Origin: a virus
Direction: 5' to 3' (one strand)
Virus record (IMG/VR): IMGVR_UViG_3300036846_001209
Coordinates: 8,715-72,714 of that record
DNA length: 64,000 bases
Below the pieces are notes generated by a model. It saw nothing but the letters and a program-made list of their open reading frames with translations. It searched no databases and had not been told where the DNA came from. Positions 8,640 through 62,460 of the stretch are shown in pieces (positions within the stretch are counted from its first letter, which is position 1; every line of letters starts with the position of its first letter). Both the position numbers and the translations under genes were made by a program.

Positions 8640-9120
8640 ACACAGGCCTGTCTGGCCGTCTACCCTAAGCCACTGATTTCACTGCGGTTAGTCAGGGCAA
8701 GACAGAAAACAGGCACTTCCAAAGACTCTCCCATGTGCGCGCGTGAGTAGGCAATAACTAGACCCCTCGTGAGTCTCGTGGCGCCCCACCCCCGACCCCT
8801 CTGGGAGACTGCTGTCGCACCTCTAGTGCGGGCCTGCGCTGTTACCTGTCTTATATGTCTAGACTGTCTAAAGAGAGAGAGAACAAGGGGTTATGGCTCA
8901 GACGGTCTAGACGACCTAGACGACCTCTGAGTTGCGACGAGGCACGACCGCGGCACGAAGAACGCCGATTAGTCCAACGATCTCAGTCACTTGCTAAGTG
9001 GTGTGCGCTTGGTTGGCGCCCGGCATCGGCTGCGGCTGGGGTCGAGGGCGGGAGGCGACGAGTGGGTAGGACGGATGCGACAACATATGGCACGCGGATG
9101 ACACTCACAGCGGTCAACCG
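8640..9120. other. non-coding control region (candidate origin/packaging site) with AGAC/GTCT repeats and IHF-like sites
   Basis: Lower GC, divergent gene boundary, repeats at 8856-8870 and 8899-8927, WATCARNNNNTTR match at 8666-8678 (-). Confidence 0.55.
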
Positions 9121-37642: not shown

Positions 37643-39510
37643 CAGATCGCCCTTCCTGCCACCGCCAGCGCCTTCGCGACCGTGGTGTCGTCGAGGCCCA
37701 GCAGCGGCTTGGTCGCCGTGCGGCTGGCGCGCCCTTCGCGCTCGGCTCGAGCCATCAGCCGGTCGGTGAGGTCGATCACCTTGCCGCCGTCGGCGTAGCC
37801 CTGCGCAAGCTGAGTGCGCCCTTCGGCCCGCGCCCACTTCTGCTGCCCGTCCTGCATCGCGCCGTCCTCCCAGTTCAGGAAGTCCTGCACGGTGCGCATG
37901 TGCGCCAGGAACGGGTTGGCGGCGATCTGGGTGGGCGAAACGTAGTCGGAGAGCGGCTTGCCCGCGACGGATGGGTCGTCGCGCAGAGCTCGCAGCAGCC
38001 GCGGCCCACCGCCCTCGCCGAGGAAGTGGATGGTGTAGACGTTGCGCGAGGTCAGCGGCATGCCGAGGTTCTTCACTAGGCCAGCCTCGTAGTCGACGTA
38101 GTTGCGCCCCAACTGCGCGGTCAGGTTCTGCCCCTCGTCGGTCTGCCGGTACTGCTTGATCTGGTCGTCGGTCATGCCCGCCGCCTGGCGGGGATAGTCG
38201 CGCTTGTACTGCCCGACCCAGGTGTCGTTGGTCATCTGGTAGGGGCCTTGGGCGGAGGATCCTGGGTTCTTCTGACCGCCCAGACCGCCCTCGTGGTACA
38301 TGATCTGGTTGGCGATGGTGTCGTTGTCGGTATCGCCGACGCCGCCCGCAGGCGGTGCACCTGGGGCGCCCGCCCCTCCCTGATCCTGCTGATCCTGCGC
38401 ATCTTGGGCCGCCTGCTCGGCTGGCGACATCGGCTGCATGCCGCCGAACGTGCCGACCGCTGGCAGGCCTGCGGGCGGGGGCTTGCTGAGCGCCCTGTCG
38501 ATCAGGCCTGGAGCGGCGGGCGCCGCGCCGCCGCCTGGTTGATAAGGCGTCCAACGGTTTGCGGGTGGGTGAGCCTTCGGCATGAGGCCCTCGGCCACAT
38601 GCTCGCCGATCACCGTGCCAGCCCACGGACCGACGAACGGGATGTGCGCACCGACCGCGTGGCCGACGCCAGCGCCGATCGCGCCGCGGACGGCTCGGCC
38701 GACGAGCGGCATCGAGCCGACCTTGCGGATCACGCCCACACCTGCGCGCCCCGCCAGCCCGGCGCCCTTGGCGGCGAGCATCGTCGGGTCGGCCAGTTGG
38801 GCGACGCGCCCGGCCTTGGCGGCGGCGCCGAGGACATCGCCCACCACGCCTGGCGCCTTGGCCGCCAGCCCCTCGCCGCCAATCGGGAGGGTGGCGACCG
38901 TGGCGATGTCGGAGCCGATCGCGAACGGGTCGTGCTTCAGGGTGCGCTTGAAGCCTTCCACGGACCCGTAGCGGTCCGTGTACATCTTGCCGATGGCGTT
39001 GACCGCCTGCTGATGTTGCGCCTGGGCGGCGGCATTGCCCTGGTCGATCAGGCCCGCCTTCGACGCCAAGCCGGTGGCGATCGCCTTTGCGCCGGTCCAG
39101 TCCTCGCCCCAGTGCCAGGGCGCCAGCGGCGCCAGGGTCTGGTGCAGCTGATTGACGAAGCTGGTGGGCGCGTTCGCGAGCGCGCCGTGCGCGACCGAGC
39201 TCCACGACAGGTTTTCCGGCTTCGGCGGTGGCGGTGGCGGCGCACCACTGGGGCGCGGGCCTGGGCGCGGCGGCGGCGCGCGGCGCGGCATCGGCGTGCG
39301 CTCGCCTTTGAGGCGCGGCGGTCCTGGCGGCCGCGCAGGCGGCGGCGCCATCGGGTCGGCGTTGGGCGGCGGCGGACCCATCGCGTCCCAGAGCGGATCG
39401 CTGTCCGAGGCGGTGGCGGGGGCGCCGCCATCCGGCGCGGGCGCAGGCGCGGCCCCAGGATCTGGCGGCGCATCGCCCATCGCATCCCAGAGCGGATCGG
39501 CGTCGGCCAT
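37642..39510 (-). CDS. ejection/internal virion protein with lytic transglycosylase-like domain
   Basis: HEGG...KNPGSSAQGPYQMTNDTW...YTIHFLG.GG...IAANPFL. Confidence 0.75.
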   Translation of the reverse strand: MADADPLWDAMGDAPPDPGAAPAPAPDGGAPATASDSDPLWDAMGPPPPNADPMAPPPARPPGPPRLKGERTPMPRRAPPPRPGPRPSGAPPPPPPKPENLSWSSVAHGALANAPTSFVNQLHQTLAPLAPWHWGEDWTGAKAIATGLASKAGLIDQGNAAAQAQHQQAVNAIGKMYTDRYGSVEGFKRTLKHDPFAIGSDIATVATLPIGGEGLAAKAPGVVGDVLGAAAKAGRVAQLADPTMLAAKGAGLAGRAGVGVIRKVGSMPLVGRAVRGAIGAGVGHAVGAHIPFVGPWAGTVIGEHVAEGLMPKAHPPANRWTPYQPGGGAAPAAPGLIDRALSKPPPAGLPAVGTFGGMQPMSPAEQAAQDAQDQQDQGGAGAPGAPPAGGVGDTDNDTIANQIMYHEGGLGGQKNPGSSAQGPYQMTNDTWVGQYKRDYPRQAAGMTDDQIKQYRQTDEGQNLTAQLGRNYVDYEAGLVKNLGMPLTSRNVYTIHFLGEGGGPRLLRALRDDPSVAGKPLSDYVSPTQIAANPFLAHMRTVQDFLNWEDGAMQDGQQKWARAEGRTQLAQGYADGGKVIDLTDRLMARAEREGRASRTATKPLLGLDDTTVAKALAVAGRAI

Positions 39511-42500
39511 CAGAACCAGTACCGGGCGCTGCCGGTGCCGTAGCCAGCGCGGGTCTGGGTCCCGCGCGTGAGGCCCTGCTCGATGTCACGCCGGCGGTCG
39601 GGGTGCGCCATCAGGATCTCGGCGGCGCTCTGGCCGCCCGCGCCGCGCGTCATCATGCGCGCGAGCGACTTGGCGTCGGCGTCGTACATGCCGCCCGTCT
39701 CGTTCTGGAAGGCCTGCACCACCCCGATGTGGGTGCCGTACTTGGCGACGTAGGCCTGTTCGAACTGCGGGAAGTCGATGCCGCGCTGGGTCTGCGTCAT
39801 CAGGTTGGCGAGGATCTCGTTGGCCGCAGCCTTGTTGGCGGTGCTGCCGCCAGGCAGCACGGAGGCGATGGCTCGAGCCGCATCGTAGGAGTGCTGGTCG
39901 TTGGCGTGCGCCATCGTCTGGGACTGGAGGCTCTGGATCTTCGAGATGATCGCGGCAGGCGCCGTGGCTTGGTTGATATCGGGGTCGTCGCTGCCAGCCA
40001 CCATCCGGTGGAAGGTCTGGTAGAGGTTCAGCAGGTTCTGGCGCTGCTCGTAGCCCTGGCCCATCGCGCCGAGGCCGCCTGCCGGGATCGCGTTGACCGC
40101 CTGCGCGAGGAGCCGCGTCTGCTGCTGGGCGGCGGTCAGGGCGAGCGGATCTCCGTAGGCGGTTTCGGCCTGCTTGGCGTTGGTGGCTTCCTCCCCGGCC
40201 AGTTGCGGGTTCATCCCGATCATCATGCTGTTCTTCATCGCCGCGCCCTGGGCGCCGCTGACGTCGAGCGGCGCGTTCGCCGGGCCGAGCTTGGCGACGG
40301 AGGCGTCGCTGACCGACGATGGTGCGAAGCTGTAGGTGCCGCTCTTGTAGTCGGCATGGACCGGCCCGCGCGCATACCCGGCTGCAGTCGGAGTGTCGGG
40401 CGCCACCGGAGCGTTGGCGCCAGCATGGCCGCCCTGGATGGTCTGCGCGTTCGCGAGTCCTGGCGCGGCCGCGCCGCCGCCGCCGCCAGCCCCCGGCATC
40501 AGGTCGGTGCCATAGCCCCAGTGCGCGTAGTGGCCGCTCGAGGTCATGTGCGTGCGCTGGGAATCGATGCTGCCGTCGGGATTGAAGAGAGCTCCCGGGA
40601 TCTCGGTCATGCCCTGGCGCATAGCTGGCGGCAGCGTCTCGTAGCGGGTCTGGGCGGCGGTCGCCTGCCGTTCGGCGATCTCAGCTTCCTGCTGCTGCTG
40701 GGCCATGTAGGTCTTGCCGTAGGCGCCGAGGCCTTGGCTGAGCGCGAACAGCGGGTGGACGGTGGGCGTCGCGCCGATGGCGCCGATCATCGACAGGAAC
40801 GGCATCAGCCGGTCGCGGTCCCAGTGCGGATGGGCCTGGTCAGGCGCGCCAGCCGCCTCGCCGAGCAGATGCAGCGGCGCGCCGACGATGTCGCGCAGGG
40901 CGCCGCCGAAACCGCCACGACGCCCACCACCGCTCGGGGCGCTCGCAGGTGGAGCACTGTCAGGTGAGGCAGGCGCCGGGGCGGAGGTGTCGGCTGGCGC
41001 GAAGCCAGCGTCGTGGGTCACCGGCCTGACCGTGGGGTCGTCCGTCGGGTCAGGTGGCGGCGGGTCGCCGCCGTCAGCGTAGCCGACCCGCCCGCCGGTC
41101 TTCACCGGCACGCCGAAGAAAGGGAGCGCGAACTTGGCGATGTTGACGAGATCGCTGCCCATGCCGATCGCCGACCCGAGGCCGCCGCCGCCGCCCTGAC
41201 CAGGCGTCGGGGCAGTGACCAGTTTGGGATGCTGGGTTTCGGCGGTCGGGATGTTCAGCCCAGGTCCCTGCGGCTTGTAGGGGTCGTCGTTCTGCGGATT
41301 GGACGGGTCGGACGGACCGCCCATCTGCCGCGCGGCGCGGGCGAAGCCGCCGCGGGCAGCGGCGAGCGTGACGGGCGGCGCGAGGTCGCTGGCATCGACG
41401 AGGCGCGGATCCCGGGACTGGAAGGCCTCGCTCTGGATGACCGGCGCGTCGAGCGCGGGGGACGCGGCGGCGACCGGCGGCCTGCTCGACTGGAAGGCCT
41501 CGCTCTGCATCACCGGCCCCGACTGGAAGGCCTCGCTCGAGATCGGCGGCGCAAGCTGACGGGTCGGCGTCTCAAGCTGGTTCGCGGCCGCGACGTCCTC
41601 GCCGACCGCACGCCGTTGGCTCGGCTCGGTGAGCCAGCGGCCGACGCCACTCGCCTCGTCGCCGAGCCAGTTGCCGAAGCGCTGGAAGATGTTCGGGTTG
41701 TAGGCGCGCATGTTGGCGGGCGCGAAACCGCTTTGCAGATTTGAAACATCGCCGACGTCCATCGGCGTGACCGAGGCGACGTTGCCTGGCAGGCCGGTGG
41801 CGTCCGCGAGGTTCGGCGAGGCCGCGCCGGGCGCCGAAGCGGTCGGGACCTGGCTGGGACTGACGCCAGCGGCCTGCGCGGCCTGCGCGTGATGATGGGC
41901 GAGCGCGATGTGGTGGGCTGCCCGCATCGCATGCTCGATGCCGCTACCCCAGTAACCCTCATCACCGCTGGCCGTCTGCGGGCCGGGGCGGGCGGCGGGC
42001 CCCGCCGCAGCAGGTGCGCCGCCTGGCGTCGGGATCTGCGCGCCCATCGCCGCACCAGCCTCGGCGCCGCGCGCGGGCGCCAGATAGGCGTTCGCGTCGG
42101 TCACGTACTTCGGCGGCGGCGGCTTCCACCCCGGCGGATGCGGGGTCAGCCACGGCTGCCGCTGAAGCATGTTGGCGGCCGAACCCATAGCCGCCAGATC
42201 GTAAGCGCCAGCGGTCTGCGCCGCGTTGGTCGTCGCGCGCTGCATGGCCTGATGGGCGGCGACGTCCGCGTCCACCAGTTGATGGGCGCCGTGGTAGACG
42301 ACGGGCGCGGCCGCCACGCCCATCCGAAGGCCTCGAGCGACGTAGGGCGCGGTGCTGCGGATGGTCTGCACGCCCGGCACGGCGCCAAGCACTGAGCCCC
42401 GCGCGCCCACACCCAGATCGGGGGGCGCGGCGGCGGCGCGCTTGGCAGCCACGACTGCGGGATGTTGCGCCGCAGGCGTATTGAAAAACCTGGGATCGGC

Positions 42501-44171
42501 GTCCGCCGTGAGCGCCGGACCCAGATGGACCGGGGGCCGCTCGTGCGAAAGCGTCGCGACACGGTTGCGCGCTTCCTGTTCCGCGACGTCCCGGCGCCGT
42601 TGTTCAAGAGCAGCGGTCAGCCCGCCGGGCGCGCGCGCGACACGCCCACCATTGGCGAAGGGCACGTCTCCACCTCCATCGTCACCGCCGTGGTGGCCCA
42701 TCAGCTTGTCGAAGACTTCGTGGCCGAAGTGGTAGTCCTTGCTCAGGCCCTCGGCGTCGTCGGCGAAAGAGGCCGCCTCGTGGATGTCGGAGCCCAGGTT
42801 GCTCTGCGACGGCGTCGGCGCCTTGGCGACCTGTAGTTGGCCGACCGGCAGATTGGCGGCCGGGACGTAGCTCGAGCCGCCGTGCGGCGCGGCGCTGGCG
42901 CTGCTGCCGTAGAGGCCGGGGCCGCCCTGGCCCGAGAACGGGCCATACATCTGGGCTTGGGACTCCAGCAGTTGCTGGATGACCATCGGGTTGGTGCCCG
43001 CCGGGTACATGCCCCAGCCAGACATGCCGCTGCCGCCGCCGTCTGCGAACCCGGCGCGGCCGCCGACGGCGCGAGCTCGGCGCTCGGGCTCGTCGCCGTA
43101 GTTGTCGTTGGCCGCCAGCGCGAAGCCGGCCGCGGCGGCGGTCGCCCGGCCATAGTCGACTGTCAGGAAGCCGCTGGGGTGGGTGTGGACGGCTTCGGGG
43201 TGCAGCCGCGCCATCTCCTGGGCGGAGAAGCCGATGCGGGTGGTCGGGTCGCCGCGGTAGCGGAAGCGGTAGATGTTGGCGCCGTCGAAGCCCTTGCCGA
43301 CCGGGATCATGTCCTCCTTGAGGCGCTCGTCGGAGAAGATCGACTGCGGCTGCTGGGCGGTGGTGGTCGAGCCCGAGAGAGCTCCGGTCCCCTCGGCGAT
43401 GTTCGCGAGGAACTGCGCCGTCTGGAACGGGTAGGACTGCTGCTGCAGGAACTGGTTGTAGACCGCGGTCTTGCCCGCCTGCTGGGTCTGCTGCTCGACC
43501 TGGCCCGCCCCGAGTTGGGCCTGGGCGCCCGCCAGCGCGGCGCTCTGCGCTCCCGTCCCGAGTCCGGCCAGCGCCTCGCCGGTCTGCTGCACGGCAGCGC
43601 GGTTCGCCTGCTCGGCGCCCAGGCCGACGCCCTGCTGCTGCTGCGCGGTCGCCAGCGCCTGCTGGTAGGCGTCCGAGAGGATCCCCGAGTAGGTCTGCCC
43701 GGCGGCCAGTTGCTGCTGCCCGGCCAGCACCGCCGCGGCGATGCCCGAGCGGTCGCCGCCATAGGCGCCCGAGGTGATCGCGTTGCCCAGCTGACCGGCC
43801 TGCTGCTGCTGGTTCTGCTGGTTGATCAGCGCCTCGGTCGAGCCGAGTACGCTGGAGACGTACGGGTTGTAGTACTGGTTGATCGCGCCCGCATCGATCG
43901 CCGACGGATTCACCGCCTGGGATCCCGCGAGCGCGAAGCCCGTCGCCGCGCCGAAGTACGGCTGCGCCATGCCGCTGGCGGCGTTGGTATTGGCGACGCC
44001 CGCCTGCTGCGTGCCGGTCAGTGGTGCGACGAACGCCGAGGGGTCGGTCGAGTACTGCTGGAACGGGGTCTGAGCGACGTCCTGGGCGGTCTGGTTAACG
44101 GAGTTATATCGCGCCAATACTTCGGGCGGTATACTTACTTGACTAGTTGAAGTCGAAGTCTTGCCGCCCAT
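39510..44171 (-). CDS. large ejection (DNA pilot-like) protein with internal peptidase S74 chaperone domain
   Basis: MGGK..Q-rich N-terminus (YYNPYV, GAYGGDRS); FSDERLKED...IYRFRY...GFSAQE...HPEAV...VDY. Confidence 0.8.
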   Translation of the reverse strand: MGGKTSTSTSQVSIPPEVLARYNSVNQTAQDVAQTPFQQYSTDPSAFVAPLTGTQQAGVANTNAASGMAQPYFGAATGFALAGSQAVNPSAIDAGAINQYYNPYVSSVLGSTEALINQQNQQQQAGQLGNAITSGAYGGDRSGIAAAVLAGQQQLAAGQTYSGILSDAYQQALATAQQQQGVGLGAEQANRAAVQQTGEALAGLGTGAQSAALAGAQAQLGAGQVEQQTQQAGKTAVYNQFLQQQSYPFQTAQFLANIAEGTGALSGSTTTAQQPQSIFSDERLKEDMIPVGKGFDGANIYRFRYRGDPTTRIGFSAQEMARLHPEAVHTHPSGFLTVDYGRATAAAAGFALAANDNYGDEPERRARAVGGRAGFADGGGSGMSGWGMYPAGTNPMVIQQLLESQAQMYGPFSGQGGPGLYGSSASAAPHGGSSYVPAANLPVGQLQVAKAPTPSQSNLGSDIHEAASFADDAEGLSKDYHFGHEVFDKLMGHHGGDDGGGDVPFANGGRVARAPGGLTAALEQRRRDVAEQEARNRVATLSHERPPVHLGPALTADADPRFFNTPAAQHPAVVAAKRAAAAPPDLGVGARGSVLGAVPGVQTIRSTAPYVARGLRMGVAAAPVVYHGAHQLVDADVAAHQAMQRATTNAAQTAGAYDLAAMGSAANMLQRQPWLTPHPPGWKPPPPKYVTDANAYLAPARGAEAGAAMGAQIPTPGGAPAAAGPAARPGPQTASGDEGYWGSGIEHAMRAAHHIALAHHHAQAAQAAGVSPSQVPTASAPGAASPNLADATGLPGNVASVTPMDVGDVSNLQSGFAPANMRAYNPNIFQRFGNWLGDEASGVGRWLTEPSQRRAVGEDVAAANQLETPTRQLAPPISSEAFQSGPVMQSEAFQSSRPPVAAASPALDAPVIQSEAFQSRDPRLVDASDLAPPVTLAAARGGFARAARQMGGPSDPSNPQNDDPYKPQGPGLNIPTAETQHPKLVTAPTPGQGGGGGLGSAIGMGSDLVNIAKFALPFFGVPVKTGGRVGYADGGDPPPPDPTDDPTVRPVTHDAGFAPADTSAPAPASPDSAPPASAPSGGGRRGGFGGALRDIVGAPLHLLGEAAGAPDQAHPHWDRDRLMPFLSMIGAIGATPTVHPLFALSQGLGAYGKTYMAQQQQEAEIAERQATAAQTRYETLPPAMRQGMTEIPGALFNPDGSIDSQRTHMTSSGHYAHWGYGTDLMPGAGGGGGAAAPGLANAQTIQGGHAGANAPVAPDTPTAAGYARGPVHADYKSGTYSFAPSSVSDASVAKLGPANAPLDVSGAQGAAMKNSMMIGMNPQLAGEEATNAKQAETAYGDPLALTAAQQQTRLLAQAVNAIPAGGLGAMGQGYEQRQNLLNLYQTFHRMVAGSDDPDINQATAPAAIISKIQSLQSQTMAHANDQHSYDAARAIASVLPGGSTANKAAANEILANLMTQTQRGIDFPQFEQAYVAKYGTHIGVVQAFQNETGGMYDADAKSLARMMTRGAGGQSAAEILMAHPDRRRDIEQGLTRGTQTRAGYGTGSARYWF

Positions 44172-44711
44172 CTACGCGGCTCCCGCCTGCGCGCCGCGCG
44201 ACCCGGGCCAATAGATCCAGTAGGCCCCAGCCGGCTTACCCAGGACGCGCTGATAGAGGCGCACCTTAGCCGCCGTGCGGTGATTTGACAGCACCCCGAT
44301 GGAAAGCGGCAGGCCGAGGTTGTCCGCGACGTCCATCGAGAACTCCGCCAGGCGTGCTGCGCGCCCACCACGTGCGCCGCGGAAGGCGGGGTGGACGAAG
44401 ATCGCCCGCTCCTCGATATGCTCGGCGCGGCTGTACCAGACGGTGCCGACGCGCAGCAGCACGGCGCCCTCGAGCGGCCGAGATCCTGGGGCGCCGATGA
44501 CCCCGCAGATGCCCTTGTCGAGGTTCAGCGCCGCCCAGACGTCGCGCAGCACGAGGATCGGGTCGTGGGCCACGAACTCGTTCTCGACGCAGCCCATGAG
44601 CGCGAGCTCCATCACAGAATCTACTTCATCCGGGGTGGCTGTCCGAACATGTGGGCGTTCCACTTTGGTGATTTCGTCATGTTCGCTGGCGAGGTTAAGG
44701 TCATCAGCCAT
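44172..44711 (-). CDS. GNAT-fold acetyltransferase-like protein
   Basis: VRTATPDE...IFVHPAFRG...A..LY; typical position among ejection genes. Confidence 0.75.
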   Translation of the reverse strand: MADDLNLASEHDEITKVERPHVRTATPDEVDSVMELALMGCVENEFVAHDPILVLRDVWAALNLDKGICGVIGAPGSRPLEGAVLLRVGTVWYSRAEHIEERAIFVHPAFRGARGGRAARLAEFSMDVADNLGLPLSIGVLSNHRTAAKVRLYQRVLGKPAGAYWIYWPGSRGAQAGAA

Positions 44712-45231
44712 GCTGATCTCCCACGCCAAACTGCTTGAAATCGTCAACTACAACCCCGAGACGGGCGTGTTCACCGCGAGGGTAGCCAGAGATCGCGTCA
44801 GGGTCGGCGACCGTCTCGGGACACCCCGACCTCGCGGCTATCTCTATTGCATGATCTTTGGGAGGAACTACGCCCTGCATCGGCTGGCGTGGTTCTACAT
44901 GACCGGCAGATGGCCGGTGGGCCAGATCGATCACCGGAACCGCAAGAAGGCCGACAACCGCTGGCGCAACCTGCGTGATGCGACAGGAAGTCAGAACACG
45001 ATCAACTGCATCTTGCCGCCGAATAAAGCAGGCTTCAGAGGCGTCTCGATCCACCCGAGAAGGAACGGTCAGCCGCGATATCACGCCATGCTCGCACGAA
45101 CTTATCTCGGCGCTTTTGACACCGCCGAGGAGGCCTATGCCGCCTACGTCCGCGCTGCCCAGGCTCGTCATGGTGAGTTCGTTGAGCACCTCAGTCCTTC
45201 GCCGGTCCTGGCAGCCCTTTCAGGGTGCTGA
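44710..45231 (+). CDS. HNH homing endonuclease with AP2-like C-terminus, antisense to the late operon
   Basis: YNPETGVF, HRLAWFYMTG.WP..IDHRN..DNRWRNLR, GFRGVS, YLGAFDTAEEA. Confidence 0.9.
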   Translation: MLISHAKLLEIVNYNPETGVFTARVARDRVRVGDRLGTPRPRGYLYCMIFGRNYALHRLAWFYMTGRWPVGQIDHRNRKKADNRWRNLRDATGSQNTINCILPPNKAGFRGVSIHPRRNGQPRYHAMLARTYLGAFDTAEEAYAAYVRAAQARHGEFVEHLSPSPVLAALSGC

Positions 45232-48169
45232 TGTGCTTCGCCCTAGACTTCAGGACGAACTGATCCAGCACCTTGCAGCCGACCTCGGGGTCGCCGTTGC
45301 CCGCGGCGCGGACCTGGGCGGGCGACAGCACATACTCGCCGCCAGCGGCGACGATCGGCACGCCCTCATCGCTGCCGCCATCGGTCGCCCGCCCGCCGCG
45401 GGAGTTCTGCAGCGCCTCGCCGTAGGGACCGGCGCCCTGGCCGTAGGGGCCGCCTGCCTGGCCGTAGGGCGCGCCGCCGAACAGGCGCCGCATCACCCGG
45501 AACCCGGCCTGGGTGTTGCCCTCGCCGTGCGCGCTGACGACGTCCGCGGGCAGCACGTAAGATCCCGACGGCACATGCATGTTGAGATGGTCCGTCCGCC
45601 CACTGACATGCGAGTGGATCGGCCCGACATGCAGGTGGTGGCGGCGGTGGTCGAGGTTGGAGTGGAAGAGCAGCGGGCCGCCGTGAGCGCGCCCAGGCGG
45701 CTCTAGTCCTCCTCCTCCTGATCCGGGTGCTTCGGGAGGTGGCTGATTATCGCCTGGATCTGGTCGAACGACAGGTTGGCGAAGTGCGCGTGCAGCGGGT
45801 CGTCGGCGTCGATCATCACCGCCTGCTCGTGCCTTTTCGATCTCGTTGGCGACTTGGTGTGCGGCTTCTTCATAACTGATGTCCGCCGACGGGCGGCCTC
45901 CGAGGTCGCCATAGAGGCGCTTCTCATAGTACCACAGGACTGCCTGAATATCAGCAGTCGAGATGTCGTGTCCGGCCTTCTTGAGTAACTGTCTCGCCTT
46001 CTCGGTTGTCTTTAGCATGAAGGTCCGGTCGGTGGCGCGGAACGGCTGATCCTCGAGGTTCTCGAAAGCGGCCTTGTGGATGGTGTTGGCGGCCTTCTCG
46101 ATCTCGGCGCGCCGCGGATTGAAGCCGGGGGGATGCTTGAAGCCGCGCTCGGCGTAGGCGTCGCGGTAGGGGACGGTGGCGGCGAGCGCCTCGTCGTCGC
46201 TCATCATGTGCGCGGGCAGGTTCCGGCGTTCGTGGTTGGTGACCAGTTGCTTGAAGCGGTCGAGGCCTTCGCGGGTCGGCTCGGGGATCAGGGTGCCGCG
46301 GTAGCGGTTGAAGGTCCGCGACCACCAGCGGTCCATCGTCAGGTAGCCGTGGGCGCCCATCAGGTTGGCGTAGAACGCGCCCAGCTTCGGGCCGAAGAGC
46401 AGCGCCGCCATCGGCATCTTGGTGTCGGCCTGGTAGGCGGTGGAGAACGGCAGGCCCGCCTTCTTGGCGGCTTTCGCCAGTTCGCCGACGGTCGATTCCT
46501 GCATGAGGTGCTTGCGCATCCCGGCCGGACCCATCGTGTCGAACAGGCGCTGGATGTTGGAGACGTTCTGGTCGACCGAGGCCTGCCGCTGGTGGCCGCG
46601 GGAGGTGGTGAACTGGCCGGTGTTGCGGAAGTTGCCGTAGAGGTCGAGCGCTTGGCGGAAGTTCGGCACCACCTTCTGCCCGTCCGAGGTGACCGCGATC
46701 AGCGACGTCAGCAGGTGCCGCGACTCCTTCGGCGAGATGGTGCGCCCGTCCGGCAGCGTCAGCCCAGGTGCACCGCGCTTGCGGCTGAGCTCGGGGTGGA
46801 TGGCGGCGAAGCGGTCGAGCGCCTTCTTGAACTTGAACGAGTACCAGCCGGCGCCGGACTTCTTCGGGGTCTTGAGCTCGTGGGCGACCTCCTTCGCCAT
46901 CCACGGCGCGATGCGGTCGCCTGCCTCCTCGGAGGTGTCGTGCCGATCGATCATCCCGGCTTCCGCGCGCTGCCGCGCCTCGAGCGCCGCGGCGACGTTG
47001 CGGACGGAGTGCTTCTGGTTGGGGTCGAGGCCCTGTGCCGCGAGCGTATCCTTGCGCTGGCGCAGCGGCAGCGAGGTGCCCCACTCCTCGTTGGTGCCGT
47101 CGATCGGGTTCGGCGTGAAGCGTGGCTCGGTGGGCATCGGGCGCTCGGCGCCAAGCATCGGCCCGCGCGCGGCCCGCATCGCGACGGCGACCGGATTGCG
47201 CTCGGCCATGAAGTCGGCGCCCAGGTTCGGCAGCGGAGCGGCCGCAGGCGGCGCGGGCGCAGGGGCTACAGGCTCGGGCGCGGCTTCCGGCATGGGTAGC
47301 GGCTCGCCAAGCCCGCCGCCCTCCTGGCGCGCTCTGCGGGCCGCGCCGCCCGCGGCGAACAACTGATCCTCGCGTCGGCCGTAGACCGGCCTGTGCGCCA
47401 GCATCACCGGCCCCGACTGCAGCACCCGCTGGGCGCTGACGATCGGCTCCTCGGTCTTGCGGTCGTAGAAGTAGGAGTGCCGCTCGGGGTCCATGCCGAC
47501 CTGAGCCCACTCGGGATCGTTGAGGTGCTGGCGGATCAGTTGGTGGATTGCGGCGGGATCTTGTTTCACCAACTTGCCATGTACCGCCGCGAAGGGCGAC
47601 TTGGCCTCTCCGCTGGCGATCTTCAGCGCCGTCTTCTGGGGCATACCGAACTGAGCATCGGTGATGTGCGCCGCAGGCTCGTAGGAGAGCGGCTTCATGG
47701 TCTTGCGGTCGTGGACGACCGGCGCCCAGACGCCGTGGTTGGTGTAGGCCGGGATGTCCAGCCTGAGCGACACCGGGTGGCCCTCGGGATACTCGTGCAG
47801 TTTGCCGATCCGGTCGTGCTTATTGGACGAGAGCGCCCGCTCCAGATCGGCGCGGCTCGCTAGCGGCGGCGGCTCGGCGTAGGGGCGCACCGGCTTGAAC
47901 GCCCGCACCAGGGCGCCGTAGTCGGCCCCGCCGATCTGACCGGCGGCTAACTGCTTGGCGCCCTCGGTTAGTTGCGGCACTCGCTTGGAGGCCTCGCGCG
48001 GGGTCATCGCCAGCCGGTCGGGCGCGAAACTGCCGCCACCGTCCTGGCGGCTCTGGCGCGCAGCCCGCATCGCGGCGGCGATCGCCTGGTCGCGCGGATG
48101 GCCCGCGTGGATCATCTCGGCGATGTTGCGCCCGACGACAGGCTCCGATGAACCATGCTCAAGGGGCAT
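45191..48169 (-). CDS. multidomain (polyvalent) virion protein with glycosylase-like central domain
   Basis: N-terminal MPL..G.S..NIAEM..GHP..QAIAAA; RLDIPAY domain; GWY...GPKLGAFYANL.G...LTMDRW...QAVLWYYEK domain; C-terminal GRTD..GSYVLPADVVS..GEG. Confidence 0.8.
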   Translation of the reverse strand: MPLEHGSSEPVVGRNIAEMIHAGHPRDQAIAAAMRAARQSRQDGGGSFAPDRLAMTPREASKRVPQLTEGAKQLAAGQIGGADYGALVRAFKPVRPYAEPPPLASRADLERALSSNKHDRIGKLHEYPEGHPVSLRLDIPAYTNHGVWAPVVHDRKTMKPLSYEPAAHITDAQFGMPQKTALKIASGEAKSPFAAVHGKLVKQDPAAIHQLIRQHLNDPEWAQVGMDPERHSYFYDRKTEEPIVSAQRVLQSGPVMLAHRPVYGRREDQLFAAGGAARRARQEGGGLGEPLPMPEAAPEPVAPAPAPPAAAPLPNLGADFMAERNPVAVAMRAARGPMLGAERPMPTEPRFTPNPIDGTNEEWGTSLPLRQRKDTLAAQGLDPNQKHSVRNVAAALEARQRAEAGMIDRHDTSEEAGDRIAPWMAKEVAHELKTPKKSGAGWYSFKFKKALDRFAAIHPELSRKRGAPGLTLPDGRTISPKESRHLLTSLIAVTSDGQKVVPNFRQALDLYGNFRNTGQFTTSRGHQRQASVDQNVSNIQRLFDTMGPAGMRKHLMQESTVGELAKAAKKAGLPFSTAYQADTKMPMAALLFGPKLGAFYANLMGAHGYLTMDRWWSRTFNRYRGTLIPEPTREGLDRFKQLVTNHERRNLPAHMMSDDEALAATVPYRDAYAERGFKHPPGFNPRRAEIEKAANTIHKAAFENLEDQPFRATDRTFMLKTTEKARQLLKKAGHDISTADIQAVLWYYEKRLYGDLGGRPSADISYEEAAHQVANEIEKARAGGDDRRRRPAARALRQPVVRPDPGDNQPPPEAPGSGGGGLEPPGRAHGGPLLFHSNLDHRRHHLHVGPIHSHVSGRTDHLNMHVPSGSYVLPADVVSAHGEGNTQAGFRVMRRLFGGAPYGQAGGPYGQGAGPYGEALQNSRGGRATDGGSDEGVPIVAAGGEYVLSPAQVRAAGNGDPEVGCKVLDQFVLKSRAKHISTLKGLPGPAKD
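45703..45873 (-). CDS. nested out-of-frame small protein (start 45873 or 45816)
   Basis: Strong GC3 bias in this frame while the host frame reads as Arg/Pro-rich linker; internal promoter-like element at 45926-45954. Confidence 0.55.
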   Translation of the reverse strand: MKKPHTKSPTRSKRHEQAVMIDADDPLHAHFANLSFDQIQAIISHLPKHPDQEEED

Positions 48170-48614
48170 AGCTGGCGAGCCTTCCGTTCGAACCAAGGTT
48201 CCTTGCTCGGATGCGCGTGACTAGGACTCGGCGCTCTTCGATCTCCTCGCTCGACAGCGGCCGCCGCTGCCCGCTTTTGGACTTCATCATCCTCGCGACC
48301 GCGATGGCATCCCGCGCTCGATCAGCCTTCACTGTGAGATAGGGCAGGAAGGCCTCAAGGATGTCGGCCGCATGTCGAGCGTGATACGTGCAGGTGTAGA
48401 TCGGCTTGCCTGATCGGGTCAGGCGCCGCTCCGTTCTCACATGGCCGCCGAAGACTTCAGCGAAACGCTCGACCGGCGCCCGATCACACATCGTGACGCT
48501 GATCGTCATCATCACGCTGTTTACGCTCGTGAAGTGGTGCCGGGCACTGATCGAGCCTTCACCGTCGAAGAGGCCAGCGAGGTAGGCGATCATCTCTGCA
48601 TGCGCGAGGGGCAT
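48159..48614 (-). CDS. free-standing LAGLIDADG homing endonuclease
   Basis: AYLAGLFDGEGSI...FGG.V...LPYLTVK. Confidence 0.9.
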   Translation of the reverse strand: MPLAHAEMIAYLAGLFDGEGSISARHHFTSVNSVMMTISVTMCDRAPVERFAEVFGGHVRTERRLTRSGKPIYTCTYHARHAADILEAFLPYLTVKADRARDAIAVARMMKSKSGQRRPLSSEEIEERRVLVTRIRARNLGSNGRLASYAP

Positions 48615-49012
48615 CAGGAGTAGCTCACGGTGACTGTCTGGCCGGCGCCGGGGATCACTACCAGACCGAGACTGACGGGCAGATTCACGAATACCGACCC
48701 GACCGCGTTCGGTATCACATAGATCACCGGGGCTGTCGCGGCGGCGCTGTTGGAGTCGACGATCGCGCCTGGCGCGGTGCCAGCGACGGTGACGTTGACG
48801 AACGCCACCCGGCCGGGTCCCAACTTCTGCAGCAGCGGGCCGCCGCTGACCCCCGGCGCGGTCGCCATCCCGTTCAGCTGCAACAGGGTTTGCCCGAGGT
48901 TGGCGATGTTGACGGCGACGTTCTTGACCGCGGTCAGCAAGTCGCTGAGAGACGCGCCGGCTGGGCCTTGACCATGCCCTGGGTGGCCGCCGCCTGGAGT
49001 TTCGAGGGTCAT
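48614..49012 (-). CDS. virion protein
   Basis: SLSDLLTAVKN...GLVVIPGAGQTVTVSYS; coupled. Confidence 0.65.
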   Translation of the reverse strand: MTLETPGGGHPGHGQGPAGASLSDLLTAVKNVAVNIANLGQTLLQLNGMATAPGVSGGPLLQKLGPGRVAFVNVTVAGTAPGAIVDSNSAAATAPVIYVIPNAVGSVFVNLPVSLGLVVIPGAGQTVTVSYS

Positions 49013-51096
49013 CCGTACCTCCCGGCGGGCTGGCCGCGGTAGCGGATGCGGCCGAGGCGCCAGAACGAGCCGATGTCGGACGACATGATCTGCATGGCGA
49101 AGAGCCGCGCGCGGGCGCGCAGGTTGAACCACGTGGATAGCTGGGTGACGCTGAACGGCCCGATTATCCACGGGATCTGCTCGGGGAAGTCGGCCAGGAA
49201 GAAGGTGATCTGCATGGTGGCGTTCTGCGGCGCGCCGTACTCGCCGTAGCGGAAGTCGGGCCACATCTCGTCGACGAAGGTCTTCATGTCCCCCTCGGAG
49301 AGGGTGAAGTAGCCGGTCTGGAAGGACGCGCTCATCGCCACCCCGTCGGCGTCGTTCGACACCTCGTGCTGGTAGATGAAGCGGCTCGTCGGATCAGCGC
49401 CGATCGGTGCTCCGAGCACGGACTGATCGATCCACGCCGAGCGCGCCAACTGGCCGTAGTCCCACCAGCCCAAGGCGTAGTTGTACTTCAGGAAGGTGCC
49501 GACCTCGCCGTTCGACCCCAAGGTCGGGATGTACCAGGCGATCTCGTTGAAGCGGCTGTTCACCGCAACGCGGATCTTGTCGACGGCGGCCATGTCGACG
49601 TCTTGGAACGCGACGTCCCAGACCGGGCAGGCGAGCGGCTGCACGCCTTCGCTGGTCATCGAGAAGAACTGGGTCGGCCCCATCCAGTAGACGACGCCGT
49701 TGGCCGCCGCGGCCGCCTTCCTCGAGATCAGCCCGCAGCCGGTGGCGACCTCGTTGAAGCCGTAGATGTAGGGCGGCCCGATGTACTGCATCGTCCAGAT
49801 CGCAAGGTCGGTCCACAGCAGCCCTTGCTGCGGCCCCTGGATGCCGCCGACGATCTTGGAGCCGCGCGGCAGACGGAACTTGCCCGCCTGGGAGCCGGTC
49901 GCCGGATTGGGGATCCAGTTATTGAAGTTGGAGACGTCGCACCACCTGACCAGCAGCGGGTCCTGAATCCCGGTGTCGGTCGAGCCCCAGGCGATGACCT
50001 GGCGTTGCGGCATCCCAACGAAAAAGCCGTCGTTCACGGTCGGCGCGTTGGGGATCACCGAGGCCTGCGGCGCGCCCGAGGTCGGGTCCCACTGGTAGAT
50101 CGGCTGGAAGAGGCTGTTGTTGACCGGGCAGCTGAGCAGCACCTGGCCGAAGTTGTCGAGCACCCAGTCCGAGGCGGTGATGAAGGCGCCGGTGGCGGGG
50201 TTGACCGCCTGCCCGCTGCCGCCGAACGGGCCGACGCCGAAACCACCCACGCCGAAGCCGGTGGGCGGCTGGGTCGGGCCGATGCCGAACGAGTAGAGGA
50301 TGCGCGCCGCGCCGCCGTTCACGGTGGCGGTCGCCGCCGAGGTGGCGCTGGCGTTGGCGATGATCGTGAAGCTGTTCGGCCCGAGGATGGTCTGGACGGC
50401 GTAGTTGCCGAAGACGGTGACGCCGCCGACCGGCGTCGCCACCAGCACCGAGTAGTTCTGGCCGGGCGTCAGCCCGTGGTTGGTCAGCCCGACGGTGACC
50501 ACCGGCGAGCCCACGGTGGTGGTGTAGGTGGCGACCGAGCCCGGCGAATCGGTGGTCGCTGCCGGCAGTGGGTTGCCCAGCACGTCGGTGGCGGTGATCT
50601 GGTACTGGGTCGCGTTGATCGCAGTGACCGGGTAGGCGCCGACGAGGTGCAGACCACCGACGCTGATGTTGGTCTGGATGTAGACGGTGTCGAACGAGGT
50701 GACGTTCGGCAGCGTCGGGTCGGTGATGATCACGTTCGGCGAACCGGCGGTGGTCGCGAAGGCGATGGTCGGGTTGGTGGTCGCGGTGGTCGGGGTGATG
50801 TCGCTCACCACGCCGCCGGTGACCACCGCAAGCTGGCTGCGCCCGCCATAGGCCTCGGTGCCGTAGGCGAGGTGCTTGACCGCGTTGGTGTCTTCCCAAC
50901 CCCAGAGCGCCCGCACCTTGGCGGGCGTCGCCGTGGCGAGGTACTTGGCCCAGCCGCCCAGCTTCTGCACCATCGGGCGCTGGTCGTCGTCGTACTGGTA
51001 GCGGATCAGTTGGCTGGCCGAGAGGCCGAACTGGTTGAGCGCCGGGGTCCGATTGACGTTCACACCATCGGCGAGCTCGACGGGCTGGTGGGGCAT
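49009..51096 (-). CDS. tail tubular/nozzle (stabilisation) protein
   Basis: QKLGGW, WVLDNFGQ, DPLLVRWCD, QAGKFRLP.GS, WRLGRIRY; beta-rich. Confidence 0.8.
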   Translation of the reverse strand: MPHQPVELADGVNVNRTPALNQFGLSASQLIRYQYDDDQRPMVQKLGGWAKYLATATPAKVRALWGWEDTNAVKHLAYGTEAYGGRSQLAVVTGGVVSDITPTTATTNPTIAFATTAGSPNVIITDPTLPNVTSFDTVYIQTNISVGGLHLVGAYPVTAINATQYQITATDVLGNPLPAATTDSPGSVATYTTTVGSPVVTVGLTNHGLTPGQNYSVLVATPVGGVTVFGNYAVQTILGPNSFTIIANASATSAATATVNGGAARILYSFGIGPTQPPTGFGVGGFGVGPFGGSGQAVNPATGAFITASDWVLDNFGQVLLSCPVNNSLFQPIYQWDPTSGAPQASVIPNAPTVNDGFFVGMPQRQVIAWGSTDTGIQDPLLVRWCDVSNFNNWIPNPATGSQAGKFRLPRGSKIVGGIQGPQQGLLWTDLAIWTMQYIGPPYIYGFNEVATGCGLISRKAAAAANGVVYWMGPTQFFSMTSEGVQPLACPVWDVAFQDVDMAAVDKIRVAVNSRFNEIAWYIPTLGSNGEVGTFLKYNYALGWWDYGQLARSAWIDQSVLGAPIGADPTSRFIYQHEVSNDADGVAMSASFQTGYFTLSEGDMKTFVDEMWPDFRYGEYGAPQNATMQITFFLADFPEQIPWIIGPFSVTQLSTWFNLRARARLFAMQIMSSDIGSFWRLGRIRYRGQPAGRYG

Positions 51097-61536: not shown

Positions 61537-62451
61537 CTAAGACGTCGGGTAGCTCGCCCAGCCAGCCCGCGGGTTGTAGTAAGCAAACGAATAGCGTTCG
61601 TAAGCTTTGACCAGCAGGTTGTCAGTAATAAAGTCGACCTGCATGTCTGTTTCGAACGCGATACGGGTCATGTAGCTCAACCCGTCAATATTCGTCAGCA
61701 GGAACCACGCGAACGGCGAGGTGAGGAAGTCCATCACCATGTAGCCCTCGGGCAGACCGCCCGAGGTCGAGTGGATGGCGTTGACGTCGTTGTCGGCGGT
61801 TCCCGGCCTGAGCTCGGTCTTGATCAGACGCACCATGACCGGCTCGAGTTGAGGCGGTCCGATCAGCTTGCGGGCGCGCGAGAACATGCGCAGCCCGGCC
61901 TGGTCCCTGAAGCCCGTGCGGACGTTGATCATGCCCGCCAGCAGCGAGGCCTCGTTGAGGTCGGCCGGGGTGGAGGCGATGTTGCTGTAGACCCCGCCGT
62001 CGATCGGGTGGTTCGGCGCGAAGAGCGCAACACCGTCGCCGCCGATGGTCGGGTCGTAGACCTGGCCGGTGTTCAGAATATTCGCGCCGTAGAGTTCCTT
62101 GGTTTGCTGGTAACTCTCGACCAGGCCAAGGTTAGATGGATGGAACTGGCTGCGATACAGGTTGTCGTCGATGCTCTTGCGAGTCATCGCGTAGCCCAGC
62201 CCGATCTCCCTGTGTTCCTGATTGAAGGTGAAGCGCTCGCCGGCGGCGTTGTCGAACTGCGTCTGGCCGCCCTCGGTCTTCAGTTGGGCGAGGCCGAGGT
62301 AGCGCATCTCGACGGTGCGCTCGAGCGCCATCTTCGAAGTGTGCCGGGTGAAGACCTTGTCCCACTGGGACGGGATCTGTTCGTACTTGCCCTCGATGCC
62401 GCGCAGGCCCGGAAAGAGCAGCGACTTGATTGCCGCTAGATTGACAGCCAT
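61537..62451 (-). CDS. major capsid protein (Mu gpT-like)
   Basis: L.PGL...G.Y, KTEG, DDNLY, QTKE..GANILN, GGDGVALF..HP, GTADNDVN, YERYSF...NPR. Confidence 0.9.
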   Translation of the reverse strand: MAVNLAAIKSLLFPGLRGIEGKYEQIPSQWDKVFTRHTSKMALERTVEMRYLGLAQLKTEGGQTQFDNAAGERFTFNQEHREIGLGYAMTRKSIDDNLYRSQFHPSNLGLVESYQQTKELYGANILNTGQVYDPTIGGDGVALFAPNHPIDGGVYSNIASTPADLNEASLLAGMINVRTGFRDQAGLRMFSRARKLIGPPQLEPVMVRLIKTELRPGTADNDVNAIHSTSGGLPEGYMVMDFLTSPFAWFLLTNIDGLSYMTRIAFETDMQVDFITDNLLVKAYERYSFAYYNPRAGWASYPTS

Positions 62452-62460
62452 CGCGCGCCC

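Follow-up and report, generated by a model that had tools for sequence, protein, structure and literature searches.

The DNA analysed here, referred to throughout as the window, is a stretch of 64,000 nucleotides (nt; positions 8,715 to 72,714 of IMG/VR record IMGVR_UViG_3300036846_001209) and forms part of a complete linear virus record of 72.7 kb with 69% GC. Within the block of structural genes on its minus strand lies a late gene of 992 amino acids (aa; 45191..48169, minus strand), hereafter the host gene, and inside it a second, much smaller gene appears to be written in the +1 frame of the same strand (45703..45873). In our judgment it is probable that this +1 open reading frame (ORF) is an embedded gene, conserved and travelling together with a glycosylase-like domain of the host protein, here called module B. 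This degree of confidence is a joint one and covers the whole of our best explanation: a chimeric host gene, a cargo of polyvalent-protein origin, the fold class of the domain, the embedded gene and the steps proposed for its use. The small gene is predicted from a switch in codon composition, from homologous +1 peptides in relatives and from a leave-one-out hidden Markov model (HMM).

The +1 frame behind module B

The change of frame is visible in base composition. In the host frame (frame 0), GC content at third codon positions (GC3) drops from about 0.9 to 0.25-0.31 between 45832 and 45689, and over the same bases the +1 frame reaches 0.94-0.97 (96-nt windows); from about 45690 frame 0 leads again. 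Scanned across the window, 45 ORFs of high GC3 (49.5 kb in all) gave 15,123 sliding windows, of which 26 combined a frame-0 GC3 of 0.35 or less with another frame at 0.9 or more, all of them at 45680-45850. For this genome the frame switch is far beyond chance, and nowhere else in the window does one occur. An earlier note on this DNA, written by a model that saw only the letters and their ORFs, had pointed to a frame of almost pure GC3 codons over these bases; every item that it described is present in the sequence at its coordinates, and the switch itself is confirmed.

The +1 ORF, MIDADDPLHAHFANLSFDQIQAIISHLPKHPDQEEED, runs from 45816 to 45703, and a further in-frame ATG lies at 45873. The frame reads ...HEQAVMIDADDPLHAHFANLSFDQIQAIISHLPKHPDQEEED up to a TAG stop at 45705-45703. 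Started at ATG 45873 its product would have 56 aa, and started at ATG 45816 it would have 37; the conserved core begins with VMID at about 45819; from the inner ATG the peptide would be acidic, with an isoelectric point (pI) of 4.4. AlphaFold2 (AF2) predicts two short helices for the window peptide, with a predicted local distance difference test score (pLDDT) of 83.6. The host frame has over the overlap only an Arg/Pro/Gly-rich spacer that must stay open.

A passage from frame 0 to +1 and back to frame 0 is also the pattern that two compensating indels would leave, a doubt already raised in the earlier note. We consider the probability of such a sequencing or assembly error practically negligible. 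An independently assembled contig of 2,657 nt (probable source run, depth 34) has 0 substitutions and 0 gaps over 45300-46300. A low-depth contig of 253 nt from another soil sample (run X3, record 18) covers 45703-45930, that is 228 nt, with 4 substitutions and no gap. Also, the +1 ORF stops before frame 0 resumes, and the same layout is found in more than 100 unrelated contigs. The gap-free and identical independent assembly is what made us rule out sequencing error.

With codons read by eye, two of the four substitutions in the low-depth contig, at 45875 and 45890, lie upstream of ATG 45873 and alter the +1 reading but leave frame 0 unaltered; the one at 45736 does the opposite, and the one at 45846 alters both frames; anecdotally, this fits a double-coding pattern. 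The match of this contig to the window is exactly the span of the +1 ORF region, and its last 25 letters fall off the window. If these letters extend past 45703, then the same embedded gene is joined to other downstream sequence in that phage.

Relatives of module B carry the same arrangement. A relaxed tblastn search with the 42-aa peptide against 230 loci gave weak (V/I)DPxDPL(H/W)...L(S/T)P.ER matches in many of them, all directly after module B and without exception in its +1 frame; searches with the 74-aa ORF in viral contigs, by words among longer proteins, and by tblastn in the first 82 loci at E≤0.01 gave no match. The end of module B is present in 153 loci, and the motif D..D[PG][LIMV][HWYF] occurs behind it in the +1 frame of 51 of the 153, and in frames 0 and +2 of none. 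The look at homologous genes that the earlier note had proposed comes out in favour of the nested ORF: of 119 distinct relatives (GC 0.43-0.69), 113 have a homologous peptide at this position and in this frame behind the domain. The +1 frame is open there for at least 50 codons in these 113, against 11 for the +2 frame (18 in an unbounded recount), and its stop clusters 65-80 codons after the tryptophan of WYYEK. The +1 peptides align as ..hhDp.DPLwssl..L..Gm.PeeR...L..fv.sl (in short, hhDxxDPL[HWF]).

Conservation of amino acids is highest in the +1 frame. Over 111 sequences its mean BLOSUM62 score per aligned column is 0.84, where frame 0 has 0.40 and the +2 frame 0.49, and the same sequences hold no stops in the +1 frame and 333 in the +2 frame. 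By column entropy, frame-0 position 3 is the most variable over the frame-0 motif ADDIGYEEA. The reverse is seen in the hydrophobic columns of the +1 motif, where this position, now +1 position 2, varies least. Profiles led to the same place: a leave-one-out HMM ranks the +1 fragment of the window first of 1,152 six-frame fragments (E 0.0078; the next has 0.41), and a profile search of 1.84 billion representatives returned 36 proteins at E≤0.001, of which the 31 examined are 44-184 aa long, all with the motif. One relative (L232) has an 89-aa version wholly inside an ORF of more than 2,088 aa, and the relatives of one of the small proteins (P0006) are all nested; two others (P0008 and P0026) have no relatives in viral contigs. 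Some of the longer small proteins have extra conserved C-terminal modules and a basic N-terminus. Further +1 modules, of the types (F/L)xL(E/Q/D)NLPFDP... and YDPIE.AM...LTRE.ALE.A..FG, are seen in L217, L222, L082, L055, L230, P0015 and P0029; in L217 and L222 the NLPFDP module comes after a +1 stop, and it may there be a second embedded ORF or be reached by readthrough.

Constraint on the DNA itself was studied in 11 disjoint pairs of relatives aligned as DNA (80-97% identity), taking the last 40 codons of the +1 ORF as its core. Differences at frame-0 positions 1/2/3 number 3/1/36 at the domain end, 41/26/31 in the core and 81/71/197 after the +1 stop. In other words, host third positions differ at 36/264 sites before the overlap (13.6%), 31/438 inside the core (7.1%) and 197/~719 after the stop (27.4%), and the periodicity of the host frame disappears exactly over the overlap and is back after the +1 stop. 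Reduced synonymous change by itself is silent on what is being constrained, and in principle it could come from a non-coding element in the overlap, for instance a regulatory site or an RNA structure, with no second protein. We find this hardly credible here: amino-acid conservation in the +1 frame is twice that of the other frames, the contrast in stops between +1 and +2 goes together with a consistent stop position, and a mini-fold is predicted with confidence from the alignment.

Several observations weigh against an embedded gene. Tested against a flat distribution, the +1 periodicity in the core (41/26/31) is not significant (p 0.17), which fits double constraint or weak selection; other pair counts show the +1 pattern more clearly, position 3 > 1 > 2, but come from a peptide-guided alignment and non-independent pairs. 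Openness alone is weak evidence, as 27-86 of about 118 sequences keep the +1 frame open for at least 50 codons at control positions elsewhere in these ORFs, and six of the 119 relatives with module B lack an open +1 frame. The peptide of the window is a distant member of its family, with 6-29% identity to the others and 12.8 bits in the leave-one-out HMM. Across relatives, neither a start codon nor a Shine-Dalgarno site keeps a fixed position. Finally, the peptide profile has no match in the cargos of the four closest scaffold relatives described below (0/4).

Host gene, scaffold and cargo

Read through its homologies, the host gene is a chimera, in which a small conserved protein of the podovirus-type internal-virion/ejection module has been split after its first ~45 residues and before its last ~165. 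The host ORF spans 45191-48196 from a TTG, and the start homologous to the MPLxHGSS of relatives is the ATG at 48169, which gives 992 aa; residue numbers below refer to the 1001-aa reading unless given from the ATG. By tblastn against phage records, three separate parts of the protein are matched by different phages. A stand-alone protein of 193 aa in MW202675 matches both ends: its residues 1-45 correspond to host residues 10-54 (56% identity) and its residues 49-193 to host residues 855-1001 (55% identity). The N-terminal scaffold segment (residues 10-54; 48035..48169, minus strand) also matches phrog_2423 (E 3.8e-11), and the C-terminal one (~residues 835-1001; 45191..45694, minus strand) is 72-80% identical to four IMG/VR loci, L083-L086. 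In total 61 IMG/VR loci carry the C-terminal part, 53 of them with the N-terminal part too, and the protein measures 122-298 aa in 57 of the 61, mostly ~185-225 aa. Because the 193-aa protein matches both ends and the family is mostly small, we take the host gene to be a small scaffold with an inserted cargo of ~2.3 kb, at about residues 55-833. The four closest relatives, L083-L086, are 913-1261 aa long, with both ends in common and differing middles. From the gene neighbourhood we infer that the scaffold protein is packaged and ejected.

The 3' junction between cargo and scaffold falls at 45695..45702 (minus strand). Protein and DNA homology to L083-L086 resumes at GRAHGGPLLFHSNL, no more than ~10 nt after the +1 TAG, and therefore the insert ends with the stop of the embedded gene, and domain and small gene moved together. 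Since the peptide family sits behind module B family-wide and the cassette ends just after the +1 stop, domain and small gene act together as a single mobile unit.

A stop placed at a recombination junction could also be a relic, that is, a recent fossil of the 3' end of a donor gene, or the trace of compensating indels, with no present function. The chimera, indeed, has no close relative in the collections searched, because no contig joins module B to the C-terminal scaffold in metagenome and genome-contig scans with residues 701-900, which did find module B ends. A relic is nonetheless very improbable: the +1 peptide family is kept behind module B in relatives of 43-69% GC with 35-62% module-B identity to the window, frame 0 runs on in all of them, and host third positions are more conserved over the overlap than on either side. 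The fossil of a donor 3' end was dropped as a candidate given the family-wide conservation of the +1 peptide and the drop in host third-position differences.

Besides the embedded gene, the cargo holds two modules. Module A (~residues 61-290; 47327..48016, minus strand) is matched by tblastn in the Roseobacter phages CRP-207 and CRP-9 and in MW202701; its matches to phrog_586 and to Pfam Phage_L5_gp82 are weak and below the cut-off. Module B (~residues 375-785; 45842..47074, minus strand) is a predicted all-alpha domain of ~410 aa with an HhH-GPD-like fold and a relation to DUF7178. Both are found in one protein, A before B, in giant phage ORFs such as L012 and L014. Module B has 180 relatives in IMG/VR; among the first 82 loci, 67 have it within ORFs of >1,200 to >2,800 aa, in which HExxH and ART-like stretches are also seen. 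Structure matches of module B in BFVD, 15 at E≤0.001, are annotated as ART-PolyVal, LPD or RelA/SpoT proteins. The cargo cassette is copied from phage polyvalent proteins.

The Pfam family DUF7178 (PF23802) gives weak matches in 48 of 51 module B members (best E 4e-05). In the window, module B scores 16.6 bits against a curated cut-off of 27, with ~65 of 423 residues covered; DUF7178 is also found in 33-69% of the members of the nearest ESM-Atlas clusters. Module B is on this sequence evidence a relative of DUF7178 that stays below curated membership. The literature searched has no mention of DUF7178 (PF23802).

Some of the differing middles of the closest scaffold relatives recall this family. 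The cargo of L086 (L086:4252-6990, residues 314-443) comes close to the DUF7178 threshold (24.4 bits, with the cut-off at 27), and by eye similar WY...TS motifs are seen in those of L083 and L084; the scaffold may always carry a domain of a DUF7178-like superfamily. Milder GC3 frame switches (frame 0 at 0.44-0.5 and +1 at 0.9-0.94) are seen as well, one behind a distant module B in L085 (L085:2698-6507, ~codons 536-580) and one in L084 (~codons 578-610), near the 3' junction of its cargo; the peptide profile has no match at either place.

The neighbourhood is that of a structural block on the minus strand. In listed order, it holds a major head protein (61540-62460), tail-fibre-like proteins, a virion structural protein (49009-51096, phrog_3287), the host gene, a GNAT acetyltransferase (44172-44747), a DNA-ejection protein of 1,553 aa (39510-44171, minus strand) and, last, a transglycosylase-bearing protein. 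The gene order is the same as in MW202675, where a virion structural protein, a small protein, the counterpart of the host gene, an acetyltransferase and the internal virion protein D follow one another. Two ORFs of homing-endonuclease type flank the host gene: one of the LAGLIDADG type (48159-48614, minus strand; phrog_5046, E 1.4e-21) overlaps its start by 11 nt, and one of the HNH-AP2 type (44299-45231, plus strand; phrog_99, E 4.8e-49) overlaps its last 41 nt from the opposite strand. These ORFs may have helped the exchange of cargo. Short motifs of the type GGR(V/A)xxA(D/E)GG are repeated in the 1,553-aa ejection protein and also stand directly before the conserved C-terminal part in L083, L085 and L086; they could be cleavage or recombination sites. 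The ejection protein also contains a Peptidase_S74 intramolecular-chaperone domain (residues 280-329, E 2.8e-05, above cut-off), which is known from tail spikes and is unusual in a DNA-ejection protein.

The predicted fold of module B

An AF2 model of module B, built from an alignment of 51 sequences, is all-alpha, with a pLDDT of 93.1 and a predicted template modelling score (pTM) of 0.89. In a wide search with this model, the top 23 rows of VIA-align belong to one fold class (Z 10.4-6.2, 170-224 residues aligned). They are headed by the AGOG Tm1821 (Z 10.4, 196 of 209 target residues aligned), NTHL1 (9.9) and QNG1/DUF2419 (9.5), and also include EndoIII (8.9), MagIII, MutY/MUTYH, ROS1, AlkA, Mag1, OGG1 and PaMx11 gp46 (7.4). 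We take QNG1/DUF2419 and gp46 of phage PaMx11 to share the HhH-GPD glycosylase fold. After row 23 the scores fall to unrelated folds, with Z≤5.9. It is because these 23 rows are uniform in fold class that we favour the assignment, and the model suggests that module B belongs to the HhH-GPD DNA-glycosylase fold class.

The earlier note had called the domain glycosylase-like, and at the level of the fold this holds, with no support from sequence profiles. The end that it gave for the domain, at ...QAVLWYYEKRLY, is there in the sequence, but homology runs on for ~23 residues, to ISYEEAA at ~residue 785.

Several points weigh against the fold assignment. A Z of 10.4 is under the caution level of VIA-align for helical models (~13) and is reachable by chance. 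Pfam HhH-GPD (PF00730) has no match in the 72.7-kb genome at E≤10 (14 of 14 control genomes match), and it is not among the families matched by the 51 module B members at E≤1. Alignment of the module B profile to E. coli Nth by hhalign is not significant (probability 0.1), and plain pairwise alignment of the two is uninformative. Profile and sequence searches of the PDB with module B gave 0 matches; of the structure searches, that with Foldseek against the PDB found none at E≤0.001, and the exhaustive one with VIA-align recovered the fold class. Also, the equivalence of the aspartate discussed next to the catalytic one of Nth was judged by eye, and not by superposition.

HhH-GPD proteins are defined by a helix-hairpin-helix, a Gly/Pro-rich loop and a conserved catalytic Asp. 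A candidate for this motif, LFGPKLGAFYANLMGAHGYLTMDRWWSRTFNRYRG, lies at 46296..46399 (minus strand), chosen from invariant alignment columns and from the helices of the model. Across the 51 sequences the invariant columns are G233, G237, F239, N242, L243, G245, T251, D253, W255, R258 and R262. The segment FGPKLGAFYANLMG...LTMDRWW carries G233, G237, N242, G245 and D253; helices 227-232 and 234-243 of the model flank the hairpin, and another helix begins directly after D253. The candidate Asp is residue 622 (613 from the ATG; nt 46331-46333). By eye, LFGPKLGAFYANLMGAHGYLTMDRWWSRTFNRYRG resembles LPGVGRKTANVVL...IAVDTHIFRV of E. coli Nth, where Lys120 and Asp138 presumably have the catalytic roles; the position of Lys120 is occupied by Phe in module B. 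Module B possibly keeps the catalytic Asp of glycosylases, to judge from the model.

In comparison with the HhH-GPD superfamily, the likeness beyond the predicted fold, as judged by eye, lies in an hGxxxANhh segment that resembles a helix-hairpin-helix and in an invariant Asp ~10 residues later, at the start of a helix. Unlike HhH-GPD enzymes, module B is about twice as long, with insertions and an N-terminal extension of ~58 residues; unlike the repair enzymes of the superfamily, it sits in virion or polyvalent proteins; and it shows no detectable sequence or profile similarity to the superfamily. As QNG1 and a phage DNA-hypermodification transferase are among the structural matches, the chemistry of module B may be other than that of a DNA-repair glycosylase.

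Translation, possible roles and known systems

How the +1 frame would be read can be approached from the sequence around its start. In most relatives a GTG or ATG lies 1-3 codons before the Asp of the +1 motif, and in many of them host-frame TAT-G codons create ATGs 13-17 codons upstream. In the window, three of the four Tyr codons near the domain end are TAT (in five structural genes there are 18 TAT against 129 TAC), and the three TAT codons each create a +1 ATG, at 45927, 45912 and 45873.

Alternatively, a programmed +1 (or -2) frameshift after module B could add a tail of ~40 aa and yield a short isoform beside the full-length protein. The +1 ORF is on the same strand and begins where frame-0 conservation stops, and the lack of a position-conserved start codon would be expected from such a mechanism. 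There is precedent in phage structural genes, as the tail chaperone G/GT is made as frameshift isoforms. Yet the spacer of 8-20 codons from YEEA to the +1 motif is variable at all three positions, with no conserved slippery or stalling site. In L229 a +1 stop lies only 7 codons before the motif and is followed by GGAGG and an ATG, and in L053 GAGGAGG is followed by an ATG; in both, the ATG after the GGAGG-type site stands 6-7 codons before the motif Asp. Also, gene callers have called small proteins of this family as separate genes, and three of the 31 examined (P0008, P0015 and P0026) have long N-terminal parts unlike the +1 reading of module B. On balance a frameshift is unlikely, and we favour independent initiation.

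The earlier note had given the nested gene a promoter of its own. The hexamers in question, CTGATA-N17-TACTAT with a TG one base upstream (45926..45954, minus strand), match 8 of 12 consensus bases, which is not significant and stays under the threshold of our scan; a search for sigma-70 sites with at least 9/12 matches and a spacing of 16-18 nt found 0 in 44000-49500, with 0.5 expected from shuffles. The -10 is a by-product of the conserved W-Y-Y codons, and that part of the claim is not supported. A promoter is unneeded for a gene within a late operon.

With independent initiation, the small protein would be translated alone from an internal start on the late mRNA, either ATG 45873 or an ATG/GTG at 45816-45819. 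The large protein would be packaged and ejected with the DNA, and the small one would have module B as its target or partner; it might hold a nucleic-acid-processing domain silent, or keep it folded, while still in the producer. Because the linkage is tight and the transfer joint, a partner role, be it as inhibitor, guardian or chaperone of the glycosylase-fold domain, is the most economical reading.

More specific versions can be imagined. Tentatively, the cassette may be a portable pair of effector and guardian, in which the small protein silences or chaperones the domain in the producer and stays behind when the unfolded cargo threads out, so that the enzyme would turn active only in the newly infected cell. 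The guardian would be written into the linker of the effector gene, recombination would never separate the two, and the cassette would end exactly at the guardian's stop because recombination cannot part them. We regard this as possible, and less than likely; the specific model of an effector with its inhibitor deserves a similarly guarded hearing.

The full model of the earlier note went further, with an injected DNA-attacking glycosylase toxin and an acidic inhibitor transcribed from its own internal promoter, and appears doubtful to us. The fold class is that of DNA glycosylases, and the small gene lies directly 3' of the domain and moves with it. This is the layout of polymorphic toxin systems, in which immunity genes sit directly behind toxin domains. 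The peptide from ATG 45816 is indeed acidic, and phages do have small acidic inhibitors of uracil-DNA glycosylase, Ugi and p56, as precedents. The promoter, on the contrary, is explained by the WYY codons, neither QNG1 nor the phage DNA-hypermodification transferase among the structural matches is a DNA-repair glycosylase, and the small protein has, in its longer forms, a basic N-terminus and additional modules.

Annotation almost always misses embedded genes, and the one studied here recurs behind a single domain type in more than 100 phage contigs from many habitats; a whole family of small proteins has therefore been invisible to gene callers. It offers a clean and testable case of overprinting in double-stranded DNA phages, in which the overlapped stretch is a spacer that is itself free in sequence. 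The HhH-GPD fold and the invariant Asp would give a first structural handle on a widespread domain of injected polyvalent proteins, together with a candidate partner for it. Also, it seems that a small internal virion protein can serve as a carrier for inserted cassettes, which is relevant to the delivery of enzymes into cells by phages.

Phages and conjugative elements have polyvalent proteins in the sense of Iyer et al., 2017 (PMC5512222), and relatives of modules A and B lie in giant multidomain phage proteins of this kind, with ART domains, zincin-like HExxH domains and others joined by low-complexity linkers. Unlike them, the gene in the window holds only a two-module piece, inserted in an unrelated small virion protein. 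In the main text of PMC5512222 the words glycosylase, frameshift and overlapping have 0 occurrences; its supplements, which possibly list the domain under another name, fall outside this count. Our literature searches returned nothing linking polyvalent proteins with glycosylase folds or overlapping genes, and we found no description in print of either the embedded gene or the fold of module B, in a search that did not extend to those supplements.

The layout itself is familiar from another part of phage biology. In phage lambda, Rz1 lies inside Rz as an embedded same-strand gene in the +1 frame. As with that pair, the small gene of the window is wholly within a larger gene of the same strand, is read in +1 and is probably linked in function to its host gene, the two being kept as a pair. 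Unlike Rz1, it has no lipobox, no signal peptide and no lysis context, and what it overlaps is an interdomain spacer in a multidomain protein. It also differs in what it accompanies, which is one domain type rather than a whole gene, and the unit that the two form moves between host proteins.

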